From assembly GCA_030690945.1 (NCBI GenBank), contig JAUYFM010000022.1, positions 1,014 through 65,013 on the forward strand: a stretch of 64,000 nt of DNA, given 5' to 3'. Within the stretch, counting starts at the first letter, position 1; each line of letters starts with the position of its first letter. The notes under the pieces were generated by a model. The model saw nothing but the letters and a program-made list of their open reading frames with translations. It had not been told where the DNA came from and made no database searches. This document shows, piece after piece, positions 27,264 to 43,079 of the stretch. The DNA is from Smithellaceae bacterium (GTDB taxonomy: Bacteria > Desulfobacterota > Syntrophia > Syntrophales > Smithellaceae). Made by a program: the position numbers and the translations under genes.

Positions 27264-27340
27264 GCCCCTGTAGCTCAGATGGATAGAGCGACAGATTCCT
27301 AATCTGTGGGCCGCGTGTTCGACTCACGCCAGGGGCACCA
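27264..27340 (+). tRNA. tRNA-Arg (anticodon CCT), CCA encoded
   Basis: GCCCCTG...CAGGGGCACCA acceptor stem; anticodon stem-loop ACAGA-TTCCTAA-TCTGT. Confidence 0.9.
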
Positions 27341-27845
27341 ATAAAATTAAGTAGTTATATAAATGTAGCTAACCCATTTATCTTTCCATGCTACCCGATG
27401 AGCAATAGAAACAAAACATTTTCAGCAGTAAAATTTACAAATCTCCCCTACATCAATGCCATAATGTTACAATAAAACTAACTTACTATAGGGGTAACAA
27501 TTTGCACATAAAGCACCAGTCCCGTGGAAATATGGAAAATTGAACCTTCAGCAACGCCGCCAAGCCCAAAGCAACCGCGCGCCCTGAGCAATGCTCGACC
27601 TGCCGGAGCACAGCGGGCGATGTGCTTTGCTTTGTGCAAGGGGATCGACCTAACTTCCTTCCGGCTAAACACAAATTATTAATATCTCAAAAGATACAAT
27701 ACTTTATTCCGCAATCCATTATGTTATTTTCTCGATAATTATGATAAAGATTTTCCACATTTTAAGTACTCAGCAATATAAATCGATCAGATTATTATAG
27801 CCTCATCTAAAAGAAGATACAGAAGAAGGAATTAATAATTTATGA

Positions 27846-28094
27846 GTTATTCATCGATCAATTCGCCCGGATGGCAAGAAAATAAACAGCGCCATGTCCG
27901 ATGTATGGAATCGCGATCTGACAAACGACCTGCAAGCTATCCAGGATTGCGGCCCGCAAAGACAAATGGAACTGGAAAGCTACGGCTACCGGTTCCTTAG
28001 GATTAACAAATTCAATTTAAGACCTCAAATCCAGGGGCAGACGGAAAGGGATGTATTAAAACAGTTATTGGCGGAAAATTTTACCTGTCATTAG
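27846..28094 (+). pseudogene. Chimeric gene remnant: phosphatase-like fragment fused to the C-terminal tail of an REase/DUF559-like protein
   Basis: IRPDGKKINSAMSDVWNRDLTNDLQAIQDCGPQ parallels the fragment at 30083-30258. It then switches to ...LESYGYRFLRINKF..., a G(W/Y)xFxRI tail typical of DUF559-like ends. Confidence 0.4.
27873..27958. repeat. Direct repeat A (57-nt core 27902-27958)
   Basis: The core TGTATGGAATCGCGA(T)CTGACAAACGACCTGCAAGCTATCCAGGATTGCGGCCCGCA matches 30202-30258 with one mismatch. Weaker homology extends about 29 nt upstream. Confidence 0.9.
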
Positions 28095-28108
28095 TAAACA
28101 CGCGATCA

Positions 28109-28579
28109 TTGGCAAGGAGCCACGCTATTGCCGTCGAGCGTCTGGCGAAGGATTTGCAAAAAGAATTTGCCGGATCGACCGGATTTTCGGCGCAAAACCT
28201 GTGGTTCATGCGTCAACTGTATACGGAATATAAAGATTTTCCAAATCTCTTACAGCTTGTTAGAGAAATTCCTTGGGGACAAAATATTGCCGTCATGACC
28301 AAGATCAAAGACCCGGATGCGAGGGAATACTACCTGCGGATGACGGCGGAAATGGTCTGGAGCCGCAACGTGCCGGCCCATCAGATCAGTACAGACGCCT
28401 ATGGCCGCCAGCGGAAATCGGCCAAACAACACAATTTTCAAAAGACCCTTGCACCCACGCTGGCCGAACAGGCGGACGAGGCCATGAAGGATGTTTACGC
28501 CCTTGAATTTCTGGGCATCACCAAACCGGTGGTGGAGCGCGAGCTGGAACGGCGAAGTATGGGTAAGAATGTGACTTAA
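28109..28579 (+). pseudogene. Truncated DUF1016/YhcG-family (PDDEXK nuclease) gene; only the middle part is present
   Basis: ...GFSAQNLWFMRQLY...REIPWGQNIAVM...DPDAREYYLRMTAEMVWSRNV...VYALEFLG matches the central DUF1016 region. The N-terminus and the C-terminal nuclease core are absent. Confidence 0.5.
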
Positions 28580-28634
28580 TATTTGGCTTACTTGTAAACT
28601 AAAAGCTTACGTGATGTTAATTGTTAATATTTTA

Positions 28635-28663
28635 TTGACAATTAAAATATTATAGTTTATAGT
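28635..28663 (+). promoter_or_regulatory. Near-consensus sigma-70 promoter upstream of fic, overlapped by an inverted repeat
   Basis: TTGACA (28635-28640), a 17-nt spacer, then TATAGT (28658-28663). TTAATTGT...ACAATTAA flanks and overlaps the -35. Confidence 0.55.
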
Positions 28664-28770
28664 GTCTTACGTTAATTTGGTGTTAAATGTTATTTCGCGT
28701 TATGTAAAATATTTCCTTGCCCCGTTGGAAAAGTCTCACATTTCAAACGGGGCAAACATGGTGTTTAATT

Positions 28771-29925
28771 ATGGCGGCAACTTTCAAACATTTTGATCTT
28801 AAACTCGTTGGGCCTTCTTTTGATTCCAACCTGACTGATTTGGTTATCGAACTGGACTATCTGCGCAAAAAAGAACTTGGCGGTACGACCCATCCATTGG
28901 TATTTTTCCAATTAAAAGAGCTGTTTCATATGCTGGAGAGTCTCTGTTCGGCGCGGATTGAAGGGAACCGTACAACGCTTTCGGAAATTATCGAAAATCG
29001 CTTGGAAGGATCATCATCCGCTGATGAAAAAATACGCGAAATCATGAATATGGAAAAGGCGATGGATTTTATTGATAAAAATGTGAAATCTTTCCCACTG
29101 GACCGCGCTTTTATCTGCCAGTTGCACCGCCTGACGGTGAACGATTTGACACTAGCCCCGAATGGTGAAGGCGATCAGTCACCGGGTGTTTATCGAATAC
29201 AAAATGTCAATATTGCCGGTTCGAATCATAAACCGCCGGAATATTTACAGGTCAATGATTATATGGATGAACTGATCAGGTTCATCAATCAGCCGGTTTT
29301 ACCAAAATATGATTTAATTAAAACAGCTATCGCGCACCACCGGTTTGTTTGGATTCATCCCTTCAATAACGGCAATGGCAGAACGGTTCGCCTGTTCACC
29401 TATGCGTTGCTCGTCAAGCAAGGGTTTCATGTTGACACCGGCCGGATATTGAATCCGACAGCGGTGTTCTGCAACGACAGGGACAAATATTATGATTACT
29501 TATCTGAAGCTGATTCCGGCACAGATCAAGCAATGGCATTGTGGTGTGAATATGTCTTATCCGGCTTAAAGCTGGAAATAGAAAAAATTGACCGGCTGAC
29601 GGAATATAATTTTCTAAAAAAGGAAATCATTATTCCCGCAATTGCTTTTGCGCGTGAAAGAGAAGTCATTACAGACACCGAAGCCAGGGTTTTAAGAAAA
29701 ACAGTCGAGCTTGGCGTGATGCAGGCCTCGGATATCGGAGAATTCTTCAGGAAAAAATCGGCGCCGGAAATCTCCCGCCAGATTGCCCGTTTGAAAAAAA
29801 AGAAGATGTTGCAGCCGGAAAAAGAAGGTTCCCGCAAATATGTCATCCGTTTTGATAACAATTATCTGCTACGCGGCATTATAAAATCTTTGGATGAGAA
29901 AGGGTTCTTGCCGATAAAAGATTAG
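28771..29925 (+). CDS. Fic family protein (Fic_N + Fic + C-terminal wHTH-like tail)
   Basis: The Fic motif is HPFNNGNGRTVRLF, and the N-terminal SARIEG matches the (S/T)xxxE(G/N) inhibitory helix. The start is at ATG 28771. Confidence 0.85.
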   Translation: MAATFKHFDLKLVGPSFDSNLTDLVIELDYLRKKELGGTTHPLVFFQLKELFHMLESLCSARIEGNRTTLSEIIENRLEGSSSADEKIREIMNMEKAMDFIDKNVKSFPLDRAFICQLHRLTVNDLTLAPNGEGDQSPGVYRIQNVNIAGSNHKPPEYLQVNDYMDELIRFINQPVLPKYDLIKTAIAHHRFVWIHPFNNGNGRTVRLFTYALLVKQGFHVDTGRILNPTAVFCNDRDKYYDYLSEADSGTDQAMALWCEYVLSGLKLEIEKIDRLTEYNFLKKEIIIPAIAFAREREVITDTEARVLRKTVELGVMQASDIGEFFRKKSAPEISRQIARLKKKKMLQPEKEGSRKYVIRFDNNYLLRGIIKSLDEKGFLPIKD

Positions 29926-30082
29926 AGACTGTTACAGTGTTACAGGGGGCACGCTGTTACCTTATTAACTTCCTCCTTCAATTCTTCTGTAACCCGCACC
30001 GCCACTGAAGTGAATAGGGATGGGTCCTGGAAAAATTCATGGTTCATCCTTTGGGAATTGTACAAAAGCGGTCAAAATAAGC

Positions 30083-30258
30083 ATGATTAAAACGAGTATT
30101 TGTCATCCGCTGCGGATTGATGAGGTGCAGGTGCCCAATGGTTCGGGCATCATCGGGATGACGTTGTGTTCCGGCAAGAAAACAAACAGTACCATATCCG
30201 GTGTATGGAATCGCGACCTGACAAACGACCTGCAAGCTATCCAGGATTGCGGCCCGCA
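30083..30258 (+). pseudogene. N-terminal fragment of a phosphatase-like gene, cut off at the end of the converging ATPase gene
   Basis: MIKTSICHPLRIDEVQVPNGSGIIGMTLCSGKK...GVWNRDLTNDLQAIQDCGPQ resembles N-termini of bacterial dual-specificity/CDKN3-like phosphatases (from memory only). The frame then runs into unrelated sequence. Confidence 0.3.
30173..30258. repeat. Direct repeat B (57-nt core 30202-30258)
   Basis: Partner of 27873-27958, offset by exactly 2300 bp. Confidence 0.9.
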
Positions 30259-30263
30259 GTTTC

Positions 30264-31403
30264 TTACAGCAAGTCGGTCTCTAACAAATCCAGCGGCAAG
30301 GCAGAGATGTTCTTACTAAGCTGATACTTTTGTTTGCCGGGATAAACAATCCATAATTTAGACAACTGTAAATCGTCCATGGCTGTCTGCATAGATCGGG
30401 TAAGGCGTGGCGCGTCTTCATACTTGAATTCAACACCCCAGTTTTTGCCGCGGTTTTGCCAGAAAAGATCAAGCTCCGCGCCCGCGTGTGTGTTCCAAAA
30501 ATAAAGTTCGTTATCCTGCTTTTCCAACATTCGGCAGACACAGTCAAGCGCAAAACCCTCCCAGGAAGCACCCAGCTTTGGCCATGTTTGCAACTGTTTT
30601 TGCGTCTCGATGGAAGAAAGACTATGATACAGTCCGGAATCGCATAGGTAAAATTTGGGCCGCTTTACAAGCCGTTTACCAATGTTGACATGCCAGGGCT
30701 GGAGAATGCGGATCATAAACGTTCCCTCAAGAATGTCGCAATATTTACGCACGGTCATATCGGATACACCGAAAGATCGGCCCAGTTCGGCGTAATTGAG
30801 AATCTGTCCGTGGTAATGGCTGAGCATTGTCCAGAAGCGACGTAATGTTCGGGCTGGTATGTTGATGCCAAGTTGCGGGATGTCGCGTTCCAGAAATGTT
30901 GTTACATATTGATTCCGCCACACATGACTTTCTTCATCTGTCCTGGCTAGAAAAGACAGGGGTAATCCGCCACGCAGCCAAAGCATTTTGATCTTTGTCT
31001 CGTCAATATCGCTTAAACGAAAACCACCCAGGTAGTGGTAAGCAATTCGGCCGGCAAGTGACTCTGAGCTCTGGCGGATTAAATCCCGTGAAGCACTACC
31101 CAGAATGATAAATTTTCGCTTTTTGTTCTGATCGACAAGATAACGCAGCAACGGAAATAAATCCGGTATGCGTTGGATTTCGTCAATGATAATTACACCT
31201 GAAAGATCTTCGAGCGCAAGCTGCGGCTGATCCAGGCGGGCGGCGTCCCGCGGATTTTCCAGGTCGAAATAATGATCGGCGCCAATAGTCTTTGCCAGTG
31301 TTGTTTTACCGCACTGCCTGGGGCCGAGGATGGCCACTACGGGGAAAATTGCCATCAATTTGGACAATGCAGCTTGATCTTGCTGTCTTTTAATAATCTC
31401 CAT
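30264..31403 (-). CDS. AAA-type ATP-binding protein with DUF4143 C-terminal domain
   Basis: GPRQCGKTT Walker A, IIIDEIQ Walker B, and the architecture typical of the AAA_14/DUF4143 family. Confidence 0.8.
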   Translation of the reverse strand: MEIIKRQQDQAALSKLMAIFPVVAILGPRQCGKTTLAKTIGADHYFDLENPRDAARLDQPQLALEDLSGVIIIDEIQRIPDLFPLLRYLVDQNKKRKFIILGSASRDLIRQSSESLAGRIAYHYLGGFRLSDIDETKIKMLWLRGGLPLSFLARTDEESHVWRNQYVTTFLERDIPQLGINIPARTLRRFWTMLSHYHGQILNYAELGRSFGVSDMTVRKYCDILEGTFMIRILQPWHVNIGKRLVKRPKFYLCDSGLYHSLSSIETQKQLQTWPKLGASWEGFALDCVCRMLEKQDNELYFWNTHAGAELDLFWQNRGKNWGVEFKYEDAPRLTRSMQTAMDDLQLSKLWIVYPGKQKYQLSKNISALPLDLLETDLL

Positions 31404-32115: not shown

Positions 32116-34074
32116 TCATATCGTCCATGCCGCGCTCGCCCCTTCTGTTGTGGCCTCGATGATGCGGCGCGGGGTGCTGGCATCGCCAATGATGAAATGG
32201 CGGATGCCTTTTTCCCGAAGCATATCCTTAAAGGTATTCCGGGGGGTAACGCCGATGGCCACGATGACCTGGCTGACGGGTTCCAGCCTTTGCTCTTTCC
32301 CATTGGTGCTGACCAGAACCGATCCTTGCTCGATGGCCTTGACGGTCGTGTTAAACATCAGCCTGGCTCCGGCAGCCCCCAGGCGCCGATGCAGCATTTT
32401 GCCATGGGCTGAGACTGGCGGCACAGGCGGGTTAGCCAGCATCTCAACCAGGGTAACATCCTTGAGGCCCTTCTCACAGAGGAAATCCGCCGTTTCCATC
32501 CCCACCAGACCGCCCCCGATGACGACGACGTGGTCTTTGGGGATAACATCGCCATTCAAAATCTGCCAGGCGTCGCAGACAACAGAGGATGAAATACCCT
32601 CGACCGGACAAGTGGACTTATCGGCGCCAATAGCCAGAATGACGACGTCAGGGTTTCCCTGGACAATCATTTCTTCCGTAACTTCCGTTCCCGTCCGGAT
32701 ATCAACGCCCTTTTTCCGGCACTTCGCCGTGAGGGTTCTGATCCATGTGCCATAGGCCGATTTATGGGGGGCCTTTTCAGCAAAGCGTATCTGTCCGCCG
32801 GTCTCCTTTTCCTGTTCAAAAAGGATGACCTGATGGCCGAGTCTTGCCGCCTCATAGGCCGCAGTAAGACCGCCCGGACCACCCCCGATCACCCACACCT
32901 TTCGGGAAACCACCGCCGGTTTTGTCGGATAGATCAGTTCCTGACCCGTTTCCGGGTTGATGGCGCAACGCACCGACTGCTGCTCCAGTATGAGTCGTTC
33001 GATACAACCCTGATTACAGGCAAGGCATTCACTCGTGTCTTCCGGATGCCCAGCCATGGCATTTTTCAGGAAATCGGGATCGGCCAGATGCTGGCGTGCC
33101 ACGGCGATCATGTCCGCATCACCACGGGCAATGGCTTCGTCCATGATATAGGGATCCGTGAAACGGCCCACGGCGATAACGGGTACCTCCGTCACGTCTT
33201 TGATCTTGCGGGCCAGCCCGACATTGAAGCCCTGCTCATATTCAATGGGGGCGCTCGCATTCGGCGTATCAACGCTGACGGCGGCACTGGCGTGGGTGCC
33301 GAAGGATACGTTGATCATATCCGCGCCGGCGGAAACGAGGTCGGGGATAATCGTCTGTATATCGGAGACGGTATAGCCGTTTTGGATGCATTCCTCTGCG
33401 GAGATGCGGATCAAGATGGGATAATCGTTCCCAACCTGTTTGCGGACCTCCTCCAGGCACTCGATCATAAACCGGGACCGGGCCCGGAAATCGCCGCCAT
33501 ATTGATCAGTCCGCTGATTGGAATGGGCCGAGAGAAACTGCATGAGGAGATAGCCGTGGGCGGCGTGGAGTTCTATGGCATCAAAGCCTGCGGCCCTGGC
33601 ACGAACAGCCGCTGTGCCGAAGGACGTAATGGTCTCCCGGATATCTTCCAGGGTCATCTCCCTGGGCGTTCCGAGGAAGCCATAGATGTAACTCGGAATG
33701 GCCGAAGGGGCGACGGCTGTCTTCCTTTGGGTCTGGAACATACTTTCCCGGCCGCAATGGTGAAGCTGCATGGCGATCTTGCCGCCTTCGGCATGCACCA
33801 CAGCGGCAAGCTTTTTGAGCCCCGGAATGAATTTGTCATCCCACACGCCCAGACATTGGGGCGCCACAGCGCCCAGAGGGTGCACTTCCGTGATCTCGGT
33901 GATGATAAGCCCGGCGCCTCCCTGGGCCCGACGCTTCATATAGGCCAAGGTTGCTTCACTAACCGTGCCGTCAGTGTTGCCCAGCCGTGTGCCCATAGGC
34001 GGCATGACGATCCTGTTGGGGATATTCATGGACTTGACCCGCAGGGGGGTCAGCAGATGTTCTAATGTTTCCAT
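32116..34074 (-). CDS. OYE-like FMN/FAD/Fe-S oxidoreductase (2-enoate reductase / 2,4-dienoyl-CoA reductase FadH family)
   Basis: N-terminal TIM-barrel block (NRIVMPPMGT, HAAHGYLLMQFLS), a CLACNQGC Fe-S motif, and C-terminal VIGGGPGGL and VVVIGGGLVG dinucleotide folds. Confidence 0.85.
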   Translation of the reverse strand: METLEHLLTPLRVKSMNIPNRIVMPPMGTRLGNTDGTVSEATLAYMKRRAQGGAGLIITEITEVHPLGAVAPQCLGVWDDKFIPGLKKLAAVVHAEGGKIAMQLHHCGRESMFQTQRKTAVAPSAIPSYIYGFLGTPREMTLEDIRETITSFGTAAVRARAAGFDAIELHAAHGYLLMQFLSAHSNQRTDQYGGDFRARSRFMIECLEEVRKQVGNDYPILIRISAEECIQNGYTVSDIQTIIPDLVSAGADMINVSFGTHASAAVSVDTPNASAPIEYEQGFNVGLARKIKDVTEVPVIAVGRFTDPYIMDEAIARGDADMIAVARQHLADPDFLKNAMAGHPEDTSECLACNQGCIERLILEQQSVRCAINPETGQELIYPTKPAVVSRKVWVIGGGPGGLTAAYEAARLGHQVILFEQEKETGGQIRFAEKAPHKSAYGTWIRTLTAKCRKKGVDIRTGTEVTEEMIVQGNPDVVILAIGADKSTCPVEGISSSVVCDAWQILNGDVIPKDHVVVIGGGLVGMETADFLCEKGLKDVTLVEMLANPPVPPVSAHGKMLHRRLGAAGARLMFNTTVKAIEQGSVLVSTNGKEQRLEPVSQVIVAIGVTPRNTFKDMLREKGIRHFIIGDASTPRRIIEATTEGASAAWTI

Positions 34075-34115
34075 AGGTCTTCTCCTCTAAAGAATTGAAT
34101 GTTTCGGTTATTAGA

Positions 34116-36527
34116 TCATGTACCGGATTCCAGGTCTTCTGTTCTTGGGTCGGGCCAATGCTTTGTCCCCCCTTCGAAGATGACCGTGAGCACTTTTTTC
34201 GGGTCGGAGGACTCCTCCACATTGGGAAGATTGGTCCCGCCATAACCTGGAAGTGTATAGAATGTGAAATCCAGGGGCATCATGCGGCCTTCCCGCACAG
34301 CCTCCACATATTTTTGAGCCGCTTCGGGATCGGGGACGCCGCGGACATTGCCAAGGAACTTTCGGCCGTTCTGCCGGTGATCGGCAAACGCGCAGGCGCT
34401 TCCATAGAGACTCGATATCCCGATCCTGCCGGGGTATTTCCATCCATAGAGCACCTGTTTGATATACCGATCGAAGGCCAGGGAGTAGCTGGGCCATTTC
34501 CCCTTTCCCCACATGAGACCGGCAAAGAAGGGATCGGCTTCCTCTTTGAGTGACTGGGCCATCAGTTGGGCCACAACAGTTACCAACCCGTACACCTGTT
34601 CTCTGGTGAAGTCGTGCCCTTCGGGGTTCCACTCGGGGTTTGAGCACCTCGGGACGTTGGACAGCATGGCGTAGAAGGCCCGGAAGGGTTCCGATTCATC
34701 TTCATCTGCCTTGGTGCTCATATTGAGACCACCCAAAATATTGGTTGGCCCGTAAAGCCCCTTCTTTCCGTATTCTTCATAGGTCACGGTGCCGTCACCC
34801 GTTTCGTCAAAGGCGTCGAGAAAACTGCGCTTCCGCGATGTCCCCTCCAGCGTATCAACGGCATCCATGTATCCGAAGAATGTTTTCTGCAGATCCCAGG
34901 GCATTTTGTAGGTGTCGGAATAAAGGGCGCTGGTGACGATTTCATTGAAGCGGTTCCCTTCCACAAAACCCAGTCGACCACGGAAGGAGGCCAGGGGATG
35001 CCCCGTGATCGCGTCATGGCCGACCACATAATAGGAGCGTTTCCCCAGACCACGCTGCAGGGCCCGCTCGAAGCAGTAATCCCTGCGGAGGGGGCAGTCA
35101 TAGGCCTTTTCGGTGATAATAGCCTGGCCGTCATATCGCGGCATTGGAACAGCCTGGGGGAAATACCCGCCCATGCCGTCATCAAGGCCACTTTCCTCGG
35201 CCTCTTTAAGGCCCACATTGCTGAACATGTAGCGGGCACAGAAAAGATCAGCCGCCACGGGGTCGATACCTGCCATCACGAGACCCTCGGGTTCCTTGAT
35301 GCCCAGGCCTTGTCCCTGATGATCCCGATTGATGCCTTCCACGGCATCGACGATGTGCATCATAAAAATATTCTGGTTGGCCACGGCGGCGATGATATCG
35401 ATCATGGTTCCCGTCAGGCCGCCTGTCTTTTTCACCAGATAGTTCCCGTCAATGCCTTTTCTGGGAAGGCAGGTTGCGGAGTCCATCTCCGGAACCCATA
35501 CCTGATGCGGAATGGCGCCCTTCATCCCCGGAATTTTCCGGTGGGGCGTTGCGTATTCCCAGGCACAGTTGCTGGAACGGGACACTTCCATGGGATAGAG
35601 GCCAATACCGAGGTTTTTGATAATATTGGTAAAGAGGGCCTGGGCATGAACCTTCAAGCGAGGCAGGTTAATCAGAATGCATCCCGGGTAAGCGGACCGA
35701 TCAGCGGCATCGGAAGGATCGCCGCCGATGATGACTTTATGGAGAATGAGAGAATCAAAATTCTCACCATCTGGAACGGGGATATCCCTTCCTTTTGCCG
35801 GATCGTCGCAGATCCGGTTCAGGTCGTAGACCATAAGCTTGTCCGTCACCTTGCCCGGGGGAAGATAGATGCCCGCCATGCTTTCTTCCAAACCCTGCAT
35901 TGCATCGTCTCCCATGGATGTATCGGATACCTCGGCAAGATACCGGCGGACGAAATAGAAACCCCACCCCCCGTAGAAATTATCGGAGCGTCCTTCAATG
36001 ACCGCTTCGGTTGTCACGGGCCTTCCCGCCGTTTTGATCCGGCGGTAATGGGCGGCAACACTGGACAGGGCCGTGGCGGCCTCGCCGATGCACATCCGGT
36101 AGTAGCTGATGCCCGCTTTGTCATGGAACCAGCGCATCACGGCAGCCACGAAGGGCCATTCCGTATTTCCCGTGCTTCCCGGGGTCGGACCATAGGTATA
36201 GGGGTCAATGTTCTCCGTGCTGACCAGGTTTGGCTTGAAGAGAATCTTTTGTCCCAGATCGAGTCTTTTGCGCAGGAGGGCAAGAAACCCTGTCTCCTCC
36301 TCCAGGGCGGTGAGGGCGGCATCGATGTTTTCGTAGGTATAATTGATCTTCGCCTTGATGTCCTGCCAAGCCGCTTCATCGGTGTTACGGATGACTTTCT
36401 GGAGCAGGGGCCCGGTTCCCTTGTATGATTTTTTGACGTCCATCCGGGCCACGGCCACGGCGGCGCCGTCCTTGTCGATCATGCCGTCACCCAGGGCGGT
36501 ATGAATCAGTTTTTCTTTAATACGCAT
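34116..36527 (-). CDS. Large DUF362-like protein (803 aa) with an uncharacterised ~350-aa C-terminal extension
   Basis: ATG 36527 follows GGAAGGAG. ILFKPNLV, LINLPRLKVHAQALFTNIIKNLGIG and VDAVEGI...MAGIDPVAADLFCARYM follow the DUF362 pattern. The 89 extra N-terminal codons in the track ORF overlap the upstream gene. Confidence 0.55.
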   Translation of the reverse strand: MRIKEKLIHTALGDGMIDKDGAAVAVARMDVKKSYKGTGPLLQKVIRNTDEAAWQDIKAKINYTYENIDAALTALEEETGFLALLRKRLDLGQKILFKPNLVSTENIDPYTYGPTPGSTGNTEWPFVAAVMRWFHDKAGISYYRMCIGEAATALSSVAAHYRRIKTAGRPVTTEAVIEGRSDNFYGGWGFYFVRRYLAEVSDTSMGDDAMQGLEESMAGIYLPPGKVTDKLMVYDLNRICDDPAKGRDIPVPDGENFDSLILHKVIIGGDPSDAADRSAYPGCILINLPRLKVHAQALFTNIIKNLGIGLYPMEVSRSSNCAWEYATPHRKIPGMKGAIPHQVWVPEMDSATCLPRKGIDGNYLVKKTGGLTGTMIDIIAAVANQNIFMMHIVDAVEGINRDHQGQGLGIKEPEGLVMAGIDPVAADLFCARYMFSNVGLKEAEESGLDDGMGGYFPQAVPMPRYDGQAIITEKAYDCPLRRDYCFERALQRGLGKRSYYVVGHDAITGHPLASFRGRLGFVEGNRFNEIVTSALYSDTYKMPWDLQKTFFGYMDAVDTLEGTSRKRSFLDAFDETGDGTVTYEEYGKKGLYGPTNILGGLNMSTKADEDESEPFRAFYAMLSNVPRCSNPEWNPEGHDFTREQVYGLVTVVAQLMAQSLKEEADPFFAGLMWGKGKWPSYSLAFDRYIKQVLYGWKYPGRIGISSLYGSACAFADHRQNGRKFLGNVRGVPDPEAAQKYVEAVREGRMMPLDFTFYTLPGYGGTNLPNVEESSDPKKVLTVIFEGGTKHWPDPRTEDLESGT

Positions 36528-36555
36528 GGTTTGGTTGTGCTCCTTCCGATTTTTC

Positions 36556-37617
36556 TCATATTTCCCTTCGTTGCTGATGAATTGCCATGGTCGCCGTGAA
36601 CAGGTCTTTTTCCGGGACGAATTCCTTGTCCTTGTCTTTCCGGAAGACCTTGATTGCTTCGGTGGGACAGGTGACGGCGCAGACGCCGCAACCGATGCAG
36701 CGGTCCAGGTTGATGTGGGCGACATCGTCCATGGAAATTGCGTCCATGGGGCATCGCTCTTCACAGAGCTCGCAGCCGATACAATCGGTTTCACTCACCC
36801 GGGCAAAGAAGCTGCTGTTAACCATCTCCGAGGGCTTAGCACATTTTTTATAAGCGATAAGAGGGCCGCAGCAGCAATCACAGCACATGCAAAGGGCGAC
36901 GGCGTTCTGGGAGGAACTCAACTGACAGATCAGACCGGCTTCCTCACCTTTCTTCAGAATGGCCAGGGCTTCTTCCTGCTCAACGTAGCGGCCCATACCG
37001 TTTTCCACAAAGTAATGGGTGCCGCTGCCGAAATGGAAACACACCTCCATTGGCTTGCTGCAGGGCTCGTTCAGAAGTGCTTTCTGTCTCCGGCACATGC
37101 AATCGGAAACACCAATATACTTGGCGGATTTGATGGCCGCCTCGGCACTTTCGTAGGGCATGACCTGGGCATCCGAGTCCACGCTTTCGGAAATGGGAAT
37201 CGTCCGCAGATCCCTCGTTTTTCCTTTCATCCAGGTGGCGTCAAACAGAATCGGCCCAAACTCCGCCATGTCTTTGGCAAATTCAGGAGTCATCCGGTTC
37301 ATTTGAAACTCGATGATTCCCACCAGGAATGCGGTTGCCATATATTTATAGCTCCCGGCTTTCCCAATACGAAAAATCTGCCCCTTGTGGGACATCTCAA
37401 AGAGCATCTGCTCGGTTTTTTCCGGATCCGCTCCGATACGGCAGGCAACCTCCGTGGCCGTTTCCGGCATCGGGGTAAGCTTCATCACCATTTCTGCATC
37501 CTCGGGTGAAAAAATGTGCTTCAGAACTCTAAGCTCAATTCCCGATTCCGTATGCAACGGATACCGCTGGGGGAAGGTGTCCAGAAACTCCGCCAATCGT
37601 TGATAAACGTCCTTCAT
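36556..37617 (-). CDS. Cys-rich Fe-S protein (wHTH-like N-terminus, CMCCDCCCGP motif, C-terminal 2x[4Fe-4S] ferredoxin domain)
   Basis: ATG 37617 follows AAAGGAGAG. CIGCELCEERCP and CIGCGVCAVTCP are ferredoxin motifs, with additional Cys clusters CMCRRQ and CMCCDCCCGP. Confidence 0.6.
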   Translation of the reverse strand: MKDVYQRLAEFLDTFPQRYPLHTESGIELRVLKHIFSPEDAEMVMKLTPMPETATEVACRIGADPEKTEQMLFEMSHKGQIFRIGKAGSYKYMATAFLVGIIEFQMNRMTPEFAKDMAEFGPILFDATWMKGKTRDLRTIPISESVDSDAQVMPYESAEAAIKSAKYIGVSDCMCRRQKALLNEPCSKPMEVCFHFGSGTHYFVENGMGRYVEQEEALAILKKGEEAGLICQLSSSQNAVALCMCCDCCCGPLIAYKKCAKPSEMVNSSFFARVSETDCIGCELCEERCPMDAISMDDVAHINLDRCIGCGVCAVTCPTEAIKVFRKDKDKEFVPEKDLFTATMAIHQQRREI

Positions 37618-37670
37618 GATGCTCTCCTTTTTGTAAATAATACATTAACTCCACCCCGGCGCTACTCTTG

Positions 37671-37805
37671 TGTCGCAATCTTTCTTGTCATTGCGAGGCG
37701 CGCAGCGCCGTGGCAATCTCAAACCGTTAGATTGCCACGGCTCCCGAGGGTAGCCTCGCAATGACCTTGTGGCAAAGTCTCAGAGGGGCGCGGAGATTTG
37801 CGATA
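37671..37805. repeat. Nested inverted-repeat element inside the operon
   Basis: The inner stem is a perfect 12-bp pairing, CCGTGGCAATCT/AGATTGCCACGG (37708-37740). The middle stem is 13 bp, GTCATTGCGAGGC/GCCTCGCAATGAC (37687-37699 / 37753-37765). The outer stem is GTCGCAATCT/AGATTTGCGA. Confidence 0.8.
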
Positions 37806-37833
37806 CCCGTTCGGTCCCTCCCATCCCTTTCTC

Positions 37834-38658
37834 TCACCGCCATGTCACCAGCGGTGTATTTCTTTGCGGAATTCGCTCATAGCCGGTTTTGGGGTAACCT
37901 AACATGACCGTGCCATAACATTGGTGCCCCGCGGGCAGGCTCAAGGCTTCGGCCAGGGGTGCATGAAAATTGGCCGCTACCGTGAAATAGCCGCCCCAGC
38001 AGGTTCCCAGCCCTCTGGCATAGGCATAGAGTTCCAGATAGGTCAGGGCGATCACACAGTCCGCTTCGGCAAAAGGCAGGTCGGCCGGGGAATGAACCAG
38101 GATCAAGTTCGGCGCCCCGCGCAGGATCCGGTCTTTCCCGTTATCCCAGGCGGTGATGATGCGACGCATGCGCCGGACCATGTCCTCATCTGTAATGCCC
38201 GGAAGGTTCTGTCGTGTAAAATCGATCACCATCGCTGCGAAGCGCTTCAGCTGGGCCGGGTCTTCAAAAACCGTCCAGTGCACCTGCTGCTTATTGCTCC
38301 CCGTGGGCGCATAGCGGGCCAGATCAATCAAATCCTCCAAAAGATCATGGGGTACGGGTTCTGTTTTGTACTGGCGTATGGAACGCCTCGCCCTTAAAAG
38401 CTGCCCCACGGCCTCCGGTCCAGGAAGAAGGTCCTTTTGCAGGGATGCACAAGCATCGAGAGGCATTGACGAAAGCGTCAAGGCACCGTGAGGACATACG
38501 GCTACGCAGTGGCCGCAGTTGATGCAGAACTCTTCGGCATCCTCTATCGGTGACGGGAAGGCGTTTTTATCCGCCATAGCAATCACCTGTGCCGGACAAT
38601 CTTTCACACAGATGCCGTCACGCTTGCATTTTTTCTGATCGATCATAAAAAGACTCAT
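37834..38658 (-). CDS. Ferredoxin-nitroreductase fusion protein
   Basis: N-terminal CKRDGICVKDCP and CINCGHCVAVCP, followed by a nitroreductase fold (RRSIRQY, APTGSNKQ). The start is ATG 38658, or 38664. Confidence 0.8.
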   Translation of the reverse strand: MSLFMIDQKKCKRDGICVKDCPAQVIAMADKNAFPSPIEDAEEFCINCGHCVAVCPHGALTLSSMPLDACASLQKDLLPGPEAVGQLLRARRSIRQYKTEPVPHDLLEDLIDLARYAPTGSNKQQVHWTVFEDPAQLKRFAAMVIDFTRQNLPGITDEDMVRRMRRIITAWDNGKDRILRGAPNLILVHSPADLPFAEADCVIALTYLELYAYARGLGTCWGGYFTVAANFHAPLAEALSLPAGHQCYGTVMLGYPKTGYERIPQRNTPLVTWR

Positions 38659-38728
38659 ATTCATTTCCTCTTTTCCAGCTCCTTTTTTCCAGCCCATTTA
38701 CAAGCAGGCATAGATTAAATTAATGAAA

Positions 38729-39577: not shown

Positions 39578-40540
39578 ATGACGCAGGCAAACTTGCCGGA
39601 ATATGATTATGATGTTGTCATTATCGGTGGCGGACCGGCAGGTTACACGGCCGGTATCTACGCCGCGCGCGCCGCGCTGAAGACGCTGCTCATCGAAGGC
39701 GCAGGTACAGTCAGCCAGATCACCATAACGGATATGATAGAAAATTACCCGGGCATTCCCGACGGCATCGGCGGGTTTGAGCTGATGCAGCTTTTCAAAA
39801 AGCAGGCACAGAAATTCGGCCTGGAAGTTCTTCCCAAAGACGTAACGGTTGTCAAAAAAAGTCCCGCAGCCCAGGTACTCTGGGAAGTGACCGCCGGAGA
39901 CAAAGTCTATAAAACACTTAGTATTATTGCCGCGACAGGCGCAATGTGGCGCAATCTGGATGTCCCGGGAGAAACAGAATTTGTAGGACGTGGCGTATCC
40001 TATTGCGCCACCTGCGACGGGCCCTTTTACCGCAACCGCGACGTCATTGTAGTGGGCGGCGGCGACACAGCTGTCCAGGAAGCGCTTTTCCTGACGCATT
40101 TTGCCAAAAAAGTAATTGTAATTCATCGCCGCGACAGACTGCGCGCGGCGGGAATGCTGCAAAAAAGGGCTTTTGCCGAAAAGAAAATTGAATTTGTCTG
40201 GAACGCAGCGATTACGGAAATCACCGGCACTGAGTTTGTTACAGGTGTCAAGGTGAAAGATGTCAACACCGGAGTGATCCGCGAAATGGCCGCCGACGGC
40301 GCTTTCATTTTTGTCGGTCGCCTGCCTTACACGGAAATGTTTCAAGGGCTGGTGGAAATGGATAAAACCGGCTTTATAATAACGGATGAACATTTGCGAA
40401 CCAATGCCGCAGGTATTTTTGCCGCGGGCGATTGCCGCTCCAAGCTTTTTCGCCAGGTTGTCACAGCCGCGGGCGACGGCGCCAACGCCGTCCACAGCGC
40501 TGAGTTGTATATCGATGACGTGAAAGGACAGACCTACTAA
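39578..40540 (+). CDS. trxB: Thioredoxin-disulfide reductase
   Basis: VVIIGGGPAG, the CATCDG redox-active disulfide, and a second GGGDTA fold. Confidence 0.93.
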   Translation: MTQANLPEYDYDVVIIGGGPAGYTAGIYAARAALKTLLIEGAGTVSQITITDMIENYPGIPDGIGGFELMQLFKKQAQKFGLEVLPKDVTVVKKSPAAQVLWEVTAGDKVYKTLSIIAATGAMWRNLDVPGETEFVGRGVSYCATCDGPFYRNRDVIVVGGGDTAVQEALFLTHFAKKVIVIHRRDRLRAAGMLQKRAFAEKKIEFVWNAAITEITGTEFVTGVKVKDVNTGVIREMAADGAFIFVGRLPYTEMFQGLVEMDKTGFIITDEHLRTNAAGIFAAGDCRSKLFRQVVTAAGDGANAVHSAELYIDDVKGQTY

Positions 40541-40666: not shown

Positions 40667-41512
40667 ATGGAATTTTTCATCAGCGCCTGGCAGCATCTGC
40701 CCTCGCACATCAGTCCCACGCTTTTCAGCATCGGCTCTTTTCAACTGCGATATTACAGCCTCATGTATCTGGTGGCTTTCGCTGTCGTGTATTTCTTGTT
40801 TGCCTACCGGATTAAACGCAAAGAGATTCCATTAACGACGGAAATTTTCCAGGATTACCTGGTCTGGGCGATGGTTGGACTGATTATCGGCGCAAGGTTC
40901 GGTTACGCTCTATTTTACAATTTCAACTACTACATGTCCCATCCGCTCGAAATTATTATACCATTTGATTTTTCTAATGGCTTCCGGTTTGTCGGTTTGA
41001 GCGGCATGTCTTATCACGGTGGCCTGATCGGCGTAGCTTTGGTAACCCTTTTTTTCTGCCGTAAACACAAGATTCGATATTGGCAATTCGGCGACTGGTT
41101 GTGCGCGGCAGCACCCCTGGGTTACATGTTCGGCAGGTTCGGCAATTTCATCAACGGCGAACTTTGGGGCCGTGTGACCACGGTGCCGTGGGGAATGTAT
41201 TTTCCGCTGGATGCGACACAGAGTCTGCGCCATCCGTCACAGCTTTACGAAGCCCTGTTCGAGGGTCTATTTCTATTTGTCATCCTGTGGTTGCTGCGTA
41301 AGCGAAATCCCTTCGACGGCTTCATGATCGGCCTTTATATTTTCGGATACGGTCTGGTGCGCTTCATTATCGAGTTTTTCCGTGAGCCGGATGCACACCT
41401 GGGGCTTGTTCTGGCATTCAACACGATGGGACAAGTCCTGTGTATAGTCATGATGCTGGCGGGTATTGCCATCATACTCTGGCGTAAACAATCTTCCTCT
41501 TTATTGAAATAA
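40667..41512 (+). CDS. lgt: Prolipoprotein diacylglyceryl transferase
   Basis: LRYYSLMYL, HGGLIG, FGRxGNFINGELWG and HPSQLYE motifs. Confidence 0.93.
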   Translation: MEFFISAWQHLPSHISPTLFSIGSFQLRYYSLMYLVAFAVVYFLFAYRIKRKEIPLTTEIFQDYLVWAMVGLIIGARFGYALFYNFNYYMSHPLEIIIPFDFSNGFRFVGLSGMSYHGGLIGVALVTLFFCRKHKIRYWQFGDWLCAAAPLGYMFGRFGNFINGELWGRVTTVPWGMYFPLDATQSLRHPSQLYEALFEGLFLFVILWLLRKRNPFDGFMIGLYIFGYGLVRFIIEFFREPDAHLGLVLAFNTMGQVLCIVMMLAGIAIILWRKQSSSLLK

Positions 41513-41525
41513 ATCAGGAGGTTTT

Positions 41526-42857
41526 ATGGGAAAGAATCTGGTGATCGTCGGTGGCGGCGCGGGCGGAGGCTCAACGGCCGCCGAAGCGAAACGAAACGAT
41601 CCATCTCTGCGGATTACGATGGTGGAACAAGGAAAATTTGTCGCGGTTGCCGCCTGACCGATGCCCTATTACATCGGCGATGTAATCAAAGATCAAGGCA
41701 AACTGATCGCGCGCACGCCGGAAAAGTTCCAAGAAGGCGGTATCGACGTTTGGCTCCAGACGCGCGTGGTCGGTGTTGATCCGACAAAAGATATTGTCGA
41801 ACTTCAGGATAACCGTCGCATACCCTACGACTTTCTGGTGGTGGCTACGGGCACATCCGCGTTTGTGCCGGATATGCCGGGACTCACTCTACCCGGCGTT
41901 TTTTCGCTTCGGAATCTTGAAGACGCCATCGCCATCAAAACCTGGCTTAAAGAAAAAAGCGCCAACCGTGTTGTGATCATTGGCGGCGGTTTCATCGGCC
42001 TGGAAATGAGTGAAGCGCTCCATGCCGCGGGCATTCATACCACCATCATCCACAAGGACGCGCTGCCGGCCAACCGCTGGGACGCTGCCCTGTCGGCCAT
42101 TATGCTTGAGGAGCTTCAAGCCCACGGCGTGGAATTTGTAGCCAACGCCACAGCACAATCCATCGAAAAGGGAAAAAGCGCGCCGCTTCGCGTCACGACG
42201 GATAAAGGCGAATATGAAGGCGATCTGGTCCTGCTGGCTATCGGCGTCCGGCCTGACGCGCGTCTGGCAAAATCGGCGGGTTTGAAAATCGGTCAATCCG
42301 GCGCGATTGCCGTCAATTTTGCCCAGCAGACATCCATCGAAAATATCTATGCGGTGGGCGATTGCTGCGAATCGTTTCACAAGGTCAGCCGCCGCTGGGT
42401 AAACATTCCACTGGGTGACATTGCCAACAAACAGGGCCGCGTTGCCGGACGCAACATCGGCGGCAAACCACTCACCTTTGACGGCATCGTCGGCGCACAG
42501 TCCTTCCGGCTGTTTAATCTGGAATGTGCGGCCACGGGACTATCGGAACAAGAGGCGGTCGCGGCAGGTTACTCGCCGGCAAGCAATATCACCTGGGGCA
42601 GCGCGATGGCGCCTTCTCTGGGCGTGAGAAAAATCGGCCTGAAATTGATTGCCGACCGGTCATCGGGAAAATTGCTGGGCGCGCAGGCTGTTGGCTTTGC
42701 CGGAGCTGTGGGACGGATCAACGTCCTTTCCGTCGCGCTGTGGACGGGTCTGGGCCTTGATCAAATCGGTTATATTGATCTTGCTTACGCCCCGCCGTTC
42801 AGCGCGGCATGGGACATTATTCATACCGCGGCTCAGGCGCTGCGCCGCACATTATAA
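41526..42857 (+). CDS. CoA-disulfide reductase / NADH oxidase family flavoprotein with in-frame TGA (probable selenocysteine) at 41655-41657
   Basis: AGGAGG at 41516-41521 and ATG at 41526. The N-terminal piece carries VIVGGGAGGGSTA (FAD fold). The TGA lies in ...FVAVAA-TGA-PMPYYIG, the position of the active-site Cys (xxCGxPYY) in this family. The frame is the same on both sides, and a hairpin sits 10 nt downstream. Confidence 0.75.
41658..41686 (+). promoter_or_regulatory. SECIS-like stem-loop immediately 3' of the TGA
   Basis: ATTACATC-GGC-GATGTAAT (41668-41686) forms 7-8 bp with G residues in the apical loop. The stem starts 10 nt after the UGA. The competing hairpin is CCGATG...CATCGG (41658-41677). 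Confidence 0.5.
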
Positions 42858-42872
42858 AAGGATGTGACATCA

Positions 42873-43079
42873 ATGATTTTGTGGTGGGTTTTCTTCGCGG
42901 TCTTTGTTGTTGCCATGCTGGTGCTGGATCTGGGCATTATCAATCGCAAAAGCCATGTGATAAAAATAAAAGAAGCCCTATTGTGGACGTCGTTCTGGGT
43001 GATGCTCGCGCTCATCAATACCTTCAAAGGTGAAGTGCCTCCGGCAAAGATGAAGGAGGGGCATCTTTATGCAAACTGA
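42873..43079 (+). pseudogene. Truncated TerC/Alx-family membrane protein remnant
   Basis: MILWWVFFAVFVVAMLVLDLGIINRKSHVIKIKEALLWTSFWVMLALI matches the TerC N-terminus. After about 50 aa the frame turns hydrophilic and stops, overlapping the next gene start. Confidence 0.5.

Follow-up and report, generated by a model that had tools for sequence, protein, structure and literature searches.

A conserved in-frame UGA at the catalytic-cysteine position of a CoADR/NADH-oxidase-family flavoenzyme gene of Smithellaceae, probably read as selenocysteine

The stretch of Smithellaceae bacterium DNA analysed here (64,000 nucleotides, positions 1,014 to 65,013 of contig JAUYFM010000022.1 in assembly GCA_030690945.1, called the window below) carries a gene for a flavoenzyme of the CoA-disulfide reductase (CoADR)/NADH oxidase family in which an in-frame UGA codon, at 41655-57, occupies the position of the catalytic cysteine; comparison with related genes indicates that this UGA is very probably recoded as selenocysteine (Sec). 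Translation gives one open frame, 41526-42857, whose sole interruption is the TGA; the frame before it reads MGKNLVIVGGGAGGGSTAAEAKRNDPSLRITMVEQGKFVAVAA, and the same frame after it reads PMPYYIGDVIKD... The mechanical list of open reading frames (ORFs) has only 41661-42857 (398 amino acids), which begins at a methionine two codons past the TGA. An initial annotation, made from the letters of the window, had placed the AGGAGG, ATG, TGA, TAA and hairpin discussed below, and all of these coordinates were correct when the sequence was read again (Table 1). The gene is a new, widespread and routinely mis-annotated Smithellaceae member of an already known selenoprotein family, and represents no new kind of system.

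For domain searches codon 44 was translated as Cys. The Pfam domain Pyr_redox_2 matches residues 4-288 (E 2.7e-60) and spans the TGA, Pyr_redox matches residues 148-224, and Pyr_redox_dim matches residues 329-428 with 41.2 bits against a cut-off of 25.3. The flavin adenine dinucleotide (FAD)-binding GxGxxG motif had been assigned to the short piece upstream of the TGA, and the sequence GGGAGG is indeed found there, at codons 9-14. The best solved relatives are 6RUZ, 4FX9, 5L1N and 3KD9 (E from 2.5e-86 for 6RUZ to 1e-80, residues 1-439 aligned), and HMMER alignments with PDB chains match codon 44 to the catalytic Cys in T. thermophilus NADH oxidase 6RUZ (GACGLPY) and in P. horikoshii CoADR (HAPCGIPY). 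These two proteins have both Rossmann motifs, the dimerisation domain and the xxC(G)xPY segment in common with the window protein; they differ from it in using Cys where it would have Sec and in having GDVAE in place of GDCCE, and the identity is modest. The best NCBIfam models are the CoADR equivalogs TIGR03385 (top) and NF007123, followed by the H2O-forming NADH oxidase, and all score below their curated cut-offs (388 against 578.8 for TIGR03385, 378.1 against 458 for NF007123 and 240.2 against 394 for NF010037). Because the CoADR equivalog cut-offs are not reached, the substrate of the solved relatives is not transferable to the window protein. Membership of the single-Cys pyridine-nucleotide-disulfide oxidoreductase family (the CoADR/Nox/Npx/NSR group) is clear from its sequence, and of the CoADR/Nox assignment made in the initial annotation the family part holds, on the Pfam matches, the PDB alignments and the position of codon 44 on the catalytic Cys, while a specific activity cannot be assigned from equivalog scores that lie below their cut-offs.

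A genome scan with one genome per species returned 52 loci from Smithella, Smithellaceae and Syntrophaceae. Codon 44 is TGA in 28 distinct species-level genomes (AA-U-PMPYYIGDVI; called Sec-type here) and TGT or TGC in 24 (AS-C-PTPYYIGD; Cys-type). Column 44, which had been singled out for such an alignment, is therefore Cys in the homologues of the Cys type, and a large clade of close relatives has TGA there. Among the Sec-type loci, L025 (OY820932.1) and L047 (OY821638.1) lie on complete chromosomes. A metagenome scan, in which the peptide U-P-M-P-Y-Y-I-G-D-V-I was fixed and any synonymous codon was allowed, found TGA at codon 44 in at least 120 contigs as well; an open 43-codon N-terminus with GxGxxG is present in 112 of the 115 listed metagenome contigs that have enough upstream sequence. 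The protein database contains two kinds of entry, full-length proteins of 443 amino acids with C-P-T-P-Y-Y that are ~72-81% identical to the window protein, and truncated proteins of 398-399 amino acids that start MPYYIGD and are 84-97% identical to it. The contigs behind the truncated entries have a 43-codon ORF, then TGA, one codon, and then the called gene. Among the best 120 protein-database matches every Sec-type entry is such a 398-399-amino-acid truncation from Met46, and none is full length with Sec.

The Sec- and Cys-type genes lie mostly in one shared locus, trxB-lgt-gene-(TerC)-SpoU-CutA, with trxB at this place in nearly all loci of the Sec type and many of the Cys type, and the two types are therefore positional orthologues. 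The Cys-type orthologues of Smithella and Smithellaceae (e.g. P0005, P0034 and P0037) are 72-81% identical to the window protein over 443 residues without indels, and go by the names "FAD-dependent oxidoreductase", "NADH peroxidase" or "CoA-dependent NAD(P)H sulfur oxidoreductase" in their sources. They have the trxB-lgt-gene-SpoU-CutA locus and Cys280, Cys281 and Cys334 in common with the window gene, and differ from it in having TGT or TGC at codon 44, Thr46 (Met in the window), Gln34 (Glu in the window) and Glu80, and in being without the hairpin. Cys280-Cys281 (GDCCES, 42357-42371) and Cys334 (42519-42533) are conserved in both Sec- and Cys-type proteins, and these three residues could be resolving thiols for Sec44 or Cys44.

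Every Sec-type coding sequence (CDS) in the 28 genomes has exactly one internal stop; it runs to 443 codons except where a contig ends within it or a noisy assembly introduces a frameshift. All 23 complete Sec-type orthologues analysed have 443 codons, and 43 complete Sec- and Cys-type sequences align without any gap. The ratio of nonsynonymous to synonymous substitution (dN/dS, by the Nei-Gojobori method) for codons 1-43 is 0.09 in the Sec-type genes and 0.07 in the Cys-type genes, and is 0.14 for the rest of the Sec-type gene. The value of 0.09 indicates that the upstream fragment is under protein-coding selection as strong as in the genes where it is surely part of the enzyme, and there is purifying selection on both sides of the TGA.

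These data bear on two readings in which no recoding of the UGA takes place. The initial annotation had offered as its alternative a nonsense pseudogene in which a Cys codon (TGY) mutated to TGA, and a sequencing or assembly error would have the same appearance; a single base separates TGC or TGT from TGA, and public annotations do show a shortened ORF. However, this TGA recurs across independent assemblies, in 28 species-level genomes and in at least 120 contigs from metagenomes, with pairwise protein identity within the set down to 71%, and assemblies free of indel errors have no further stops or frameshifts. The cross-species conservation and the dN/dS of 0.09 upstream of the TGA, with 0.14 downstream of it, refute the pseudogene, and we consider a pseudogene or error extremely improbable. 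Reassignment of UGA to a sense codon (Trp or Gly) in this lineage has nothing in its favour but the in-frame TGA itself, and its probability is next to negligible: TGA is the commonest ordinary stop, ending 12 of 26 Pfam-supported genes in the window, it also terminates orthologues of the selenoprotein gene (L020 and L025), and no other in-frame TGA of the window is read across a conserved domain.

Two loci in the genome set have assembly problems. L045 (CAVSZS010000013.1) is labelled "Candidatus Aminicenantes" and has an 87%-identical Sec-type gene with Smithellaceae synteny and one frameshift, which suggests mis-binning plus long-read indel errors. L005 (ERZ25039472 contig_92663) has many split genes, among them the selenoprotein gene, which is present as a 416-amino-acid fragment.

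Just downstream of the TGA there is a candidate bacterial selenocysteine insertion sequence (SECIS), in which AUUACAUC (41668-75) pairs with GAUGUAAU (41679-86) to form an 8-bp stem with the apical triloop GGC (41676-78). This hairpin, with G in its loop, had been picked out in the window at 41668-41686, and it is complete in all Sec-type sequences compared: the full 8 bp are present in 28 of 28 Sec-type and 1 of 24 Cys-type sequences, so that close relatives have kept both TGA and hairpin and the hairpin is lacking in the Cys-type orthologues. The mean minimum free energy (MFE) of the 19 nucleotides is -5.1 kcal/mol for Sec-type and -0.3 kcal/mol for Cys-type sequences. RNAalifold gives only the 41668-75/41679-86 helix, both with 26 sequences and with 130 distinct 150-nt sequences; every cell of the helix (100%) is paired across the 26 aligned sequences, and there is one compensatory change, C:G to U:A, in the hairpin AUUAUAUC-GGU-GAUAUAAU of the Sec-type paralogue L012 (described below). 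The + strand of the 64-kb window has eight perfect 8-bp hairpins with a loop of 3-9 nt and G in the first two loop positions, and the chance expectation is ~0.003 such hairpins in the ~22-nt interval allowed after a given TGA. Taken with the comparative data, the placement of the hairpin after the TGA is far beyond chance.

The synonymous sites of the hairpin are nearly frozen. Synonymous codon diversity in the 23 complete Sec-type genes has a mean of 0.41, and its gene-wide minimum, at codons 37-53, is in the codon windows that start at codons 37-46; it is 0.0-0.09 at stem codons 48-50 and 52-53, and 0.72 at loop codon 51 (GGN). No dip in synonymous diversity is present at the hairpin region in the Cys-type genes. 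Among the metagenome matches listed, the full helix is present in 120 of 120, the codons TAT, TAC, ATC and GAT are invariant, and GTA is found in 119 of 120, the sole GTG keeping a U.G pair; in the same matches the loop is GGN with all four bases, and there is variation in both spacer Pro codons and at the third base of Ile54. The spacer codons in the metagenome contigs are CCG, CCC, CCA or CCT for Pro45 and CCC, CCT or CCG for Pro47. In the 130 distinct 150-nt sequences, third positions are more than 97% conserved only at codons 44, 46, 48, 49, 50, 52 and 53. There is nucleotide-level selection on the hairpin beyond the protein code. In the 130 sequences no further conserved helix was found that would lengthen the SECIS or pair the invariant GCC GCC ahead of the UGA in a lower stem. 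The codons just before the UGA (41646-41654, TTT/GTT GCC GCC) show almost no synonymous variation in the main Sec clade from the genomes. In the metagenome set GCC GCC is predominant, codon 41 is variable, and no pairing partner was found; these codons may have a codon-context effect on Sec insertion.

The published model of the bacterial SECIS (Zhang & Gladyshev, summarised in PMC13188914) has a loop of 3-9 nt, a stem of 4-16 bp, G in the first two loop positions, a UGA-to-loop distance of 16-37 nt and an MFE of -7.5 kcal/mol or lower. The window hairpin has this geometry, with a 3-nt loop (GGN), an 8-bp stem and 18 nt from UGA to loop. Like the E. coli fdhF archetype it is intragenic, lies just 3' of the UGA and has a small loop that begins with G-G, and it differs from the model in being very small (19 nt) and AU-rich, and in having neither a bulged U nor a lower stem. 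The alignment of Sec with Cys, the conserved hairpin and the purifying selection on both sides of the TGA all support the original suggestion that this TGA encodes Sec.

Met46 (ATG 41661-41663) is perfectly associated with the main TGA clade, is Thr in the Cys-type proteins, and is a false start for gene callers. It could also be a true start, if translation stopped at the UGA and re-initiated at this AUG, and the 43-amino-acid FAD-loop peptide and the 398-amino-acid protein so made assembled non-covalently; the strict tie of Met46 to the main TGA clade agrees with this, UGA-N3-AUG is a plausible arrangement for translational coupling, and gene callers annotate the gene in the same way. Such a split product would, however, be wholly without the catalytic residue, there is no Shine-Dalgarno sequence before 41661, and re-initiation leaves the frozen synonymous sites of the hairpin with their free loop base unexplained. 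Moreover, L012 has the TGA and a hairpin but ACC (Thr) in place of the ATG and cannot re-initiate, which argues against Met46 as a re-initiation codon. We therefore regard a split gene as very unlikely.

Several observations weigh against Sec at codon 44. The support for it is entirely at the sequence level. The hairpin stem is encoded by the conserved peptide YYIGDVI and part of its conservation is protein-level, so only the synonymous-site evidence is independent of protein conservation, and the covariation support is one compensatory event. The hairpin alone has an MFE of -5.2 to -5.7 kcal/mol (-5.7 in the window), above the -7.5 kcal/mol threshold of the bacterial SECIS model; its loop, stem, G residues and spacing agree with that model. 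The MFE of 45 nt is -8.8 kcal/mol, but the window fold at that energy uses a rival stem, CCGAUG/CAUCGG (41658-63/41672-77), which single-sequence MFE folding prefers; six species add a 3-bp lower stem to the hairpin and reach -8.8 kcal/mol with it. The rival stem was rejected as a functional element, as four species have a C.C mismatch in it and L012 has two mismatches, it shows no covariation, and RNAalifold never chooses it. Finally, ARAGORN detected no tRNA-Sec, and tblastn with E. coli SelA, SelB and SelD no selA, selB or selD, when run on the window and on 1.2 Mb of related loci.

An Rfam scan of the window at gathering thresholds found three tRNAs only and no SECIS-type family, and a six-frame scan of the window for ORF pairs joined by an in-frame TGA, with Pfam checks, revealed neither a further selenoprotein gene nor selA, selB or selD. 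Support for the Sec trait of the lineage comes only from the literature. The tRNA paper of Mukai et al. 2016 is the only direct literature statement on Smithella selenoproteins that was found; it describes a Smithella composite genome with complete selA/B/C/D plus a Sec-like tRNA-Cys, selC*. Published selenoproteome surveys give 16-19 selenoproteins, SelD included, for Syntrophus aciditrophicus.

A minor rival reading builds on the selC* of that composite genome. The same hairpin could serve to recode the UGA as Cys, always or at low selenium, by means of a selC* tRNA-Cys and a second SelB (SelB*), a system that has been proposed for Syntrophobacterales and Desulfobacterales: Mukai et al. 2016 also report selB* in Syntrophobacterales and a selC* tRNA with a UCA anticodon that reads the opal Sec codon as Cys, and Cys is functional at position 44 in 24 orthologues and paralogues. 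On the other hand, that paper ties UCA anticodons to cysS*-bearing Desulfobacterales, and all selC*-containing genomes also carried the full Sec apparatus. The window and the 1.2 Mb of related loci contain no selC*, selB* or UCA-anticodon tRNA, and a TGY codon would be cheaper were Cys the intended residue. Insertion of Cys at this UGA thus appears very unlikely. Dual decoding, in which the same UGA and 19-nt hairpin would give Sec through SelB in selenium-replete cells and Cys through selC*/SelB* in selenium-poor ones, is also unlikely.

With Sec as the residue inserted, we infer the decoding by SelB and tRNA-Sec, the chemistry of Sec44 and the nature of the physiological substrate to be as follows. 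A SelB-type elongation factor carrying Sec-tRNA(Sec) would bind the hairpin at 41668-86, with its 8-bp stem and GGN triloop, and would deliver Sec to the ribosome. The product would be a 443-residue, homodimer-type FAD/NAD(P)H flavoprotein in which the catalytic Cys is replaced by Sec. Sec44 would lie against the flavin and cycle between the selenolate and an oxidised form, either a selenenic acid or a selenenyl-sulfide with CoA or a persulfide substrate, and the oxidised Sec44 would be re-reduced by NAD(P)H through the FAD. The conserved trxB-lgt-gene locus makes it likely that the enzyme takes part in the redox homeostasis of thiols, persulfides or peroxides in this strictly anaerobic syntroph.

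A neighbour-joining (NJ) tree on Kimura distances, with codons 37-60 left out, has one main Sec clade of 22 sequences. Two genes have positions in the tree that do not follow their type. L012 (L012:3001-4332, PHBJ01000005.1) is a Sec-type paralogue nested among the Cys-type sequences and is outside the trxB-lgt locus, between an RND efflux pump gene and a cation-efflux (CDF) gene, with a CCG/4Fe-4S protein gene beyond. Its motif is still the Cys-type PTP, no ATG follows its TGA, and its hairpin is a variant of its own. The syntenic copy in the same metagenome-assembled genome (MAG), L056, is Cys-type; L012 is probably a second, independent Cys-to-Sec conversion. L042 (L042:3001-4329) is a Cys-type gene (TGC) in the trxB-lgt locus that forms a long branch nested in the Sec clade and has 4 of the 8 hairpin pairs; it is a possible Sec-to-Cys reversal, although its place in the NJ tree is weak evidence for this. 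In most Cys-type genes 5-7 of the 8 hairpin pairs are already present, and the peptide YYIGD(V/I)I is thus close to a SECIS by coding accident. It is partly supported that the YYIGD(V/I)I coding sequence was pre-adapted as a SECIS and was recruited twice independently, in the main clade and in L012.

The first surveys of prokaryotic selenoproteins already listed the NADH oxidase/CoADR family, of which Geobacter metallireducens WP_011365774.1 (COG0446/TIGR03385), with the motif UGxP, is the prototype; the family is also present in an Olavius delta-1 symbiont and in 19 organisms in a 2016 ISME J survey. The sequenced relative that the surveys cover, Syntrophus aciditrophicus, is not listed with this family there. 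The G. metallireducens type belongs to the same superfamily as the window protein, similarly carries Sec in place of the redox-active Cys, near residue 44, with x-x-P after it, and comes from the anaerobic "Deltaproteobacteria", the same broad ecological group as the source of the window. The two are set apart by motif description only, the published UGxP against UPMP in the window, with CPTP in the Smithellaceae Cys-type proteins. Since the motif is UPMP rather than UGxP and the Cys-type sisters have CPTP, the Smithellaceae proteins look like a separate subfamily, and by these motifs they probably arose by a Cys-to-Sec conversion separate from that of the G. metallireducens type.

Table 1. 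Positions of the candidate selenoprotein gene, its sequence elements and its upstream neighbours in the window
Feature	Position	Strand	Basis or remark
trxB (thioredoxin-disulfide reductase)	39578..40540	+	TIGR01292 381.5 bits against cut-off 343.45; conserved upstream neighbour
lgt (prolipoprotein diacylglyceryl transferase)	40667..41512	+	TIGR00544 249.7 bits against cut-off 118.9; directly 5' of the CDS
Shine-Dalgarno AGGAGG	41516..41521	+	read in the sequence; 4 nt 5' of the true start ATG 41526
Complete CDS of the predicted selenoprotein	41526..42857	+	443 codons including Sec44, then TAA 42855-42857; single-Cys(Sec) FAD/NAD(P)H pyridine-nucleotide-disulfide oxidoreductase (CoADR/Nox/Npx/NSR)
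FAD-binding GxGxxG, GGGAGG, residues 9-14	41550..41567	+	first GxGxxG; 5' of the TGA
UGA, probably read as Sec, residue 44, motif AA-U-PMPYY	41655..41657	+	aligns with the redox-active Cys of 6RUZ, 5L1N and 4FX9
Spacer from UGA to hairpin, CCGAUGCCCU, 10 nt	41658..41667	+	contains ATG 41661; third positions of Pro45 and Pro47 vary
Candidate bacterial SECIS, ATTACATC-GGC-GATGTAAT	41668..41686	+	10 nt after the TGA; perfect inverted repeat
Second Rossmann motif GGGFIG, residues 153-158, NAD(P)H binding	41982..41999	+	motif and Pfam Pyr_redox
GDCCE, FAD-binding GD motif followed by vicinal Cys280-Cys281	42357..42371	+	kept in Sec- and Cys-type proteins

The trxB and lgt genes had been recognised as upstream neighbours from the sequence, and both score above their TIGR01292 and TIGR00544 cut-offs; the lgt stop codon is the TAA at 41510-41512. 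Downstream, the selenoprotein gene is separated from the SpoU methyltransferase gene by a 211-bp geneless gap (42858-43068), and most relatives (e.g. L001 and L002) have a TerC-family membrane protein gene at that place, which has been lost from the window and its nearest relatives L004, L006 and L008.

Farther upstream, 27264-31403 contains a tRNA-Arg(CCT), then a Fic/DOC-family gene (28717-29925) and a DUF4143/AAA_14 ATPase gene (30264-31403, minus strand), and may be a small integrated island at a tRNA gene. The GC content goes from 0.46 to 0.56 just past this block. A high-GC redox block follows at 32116-38697 (minus strand); it includes an OYE + Pyr_redox_2 Fe-S flavoenzyme (BaiCD/FadH-like, below equivalog cut-offs), an 892-amino-acid ORF with a DUF362 domain, a 4Fe-4S protein and a ferredoxin-nitroreductase fusion. 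With its listed GTG start the 892-amino-acid ORF runs ~240 nt into the preceding gene, and this start probably lies too far upstream. A TetR regulator gene lies after the redox block, just upstream of trxB.

The Sec-type gene is systematically mis-called in Smithellaceae MAGs, giving products without the FAD loop and the catalytic residue. Smithellaceae are important syntrophic degraders of alkanes and propionate in digesters and sediments, and correct annotation would add a selenium-dependent thiol/peroxide-redox flavoenzyme beside trxB and bears on the selenium requirements of these communities. The locus is a natural experiment, with positional orthologues that have Sec or Cys at one locus, a very small 19-nt candidate SECIS written into a conserved peptide, and an apparent second conversion with a compensatory change, and it would be a convenient system for studying the origin of SECIS elements and the minimal requirements of SelB.

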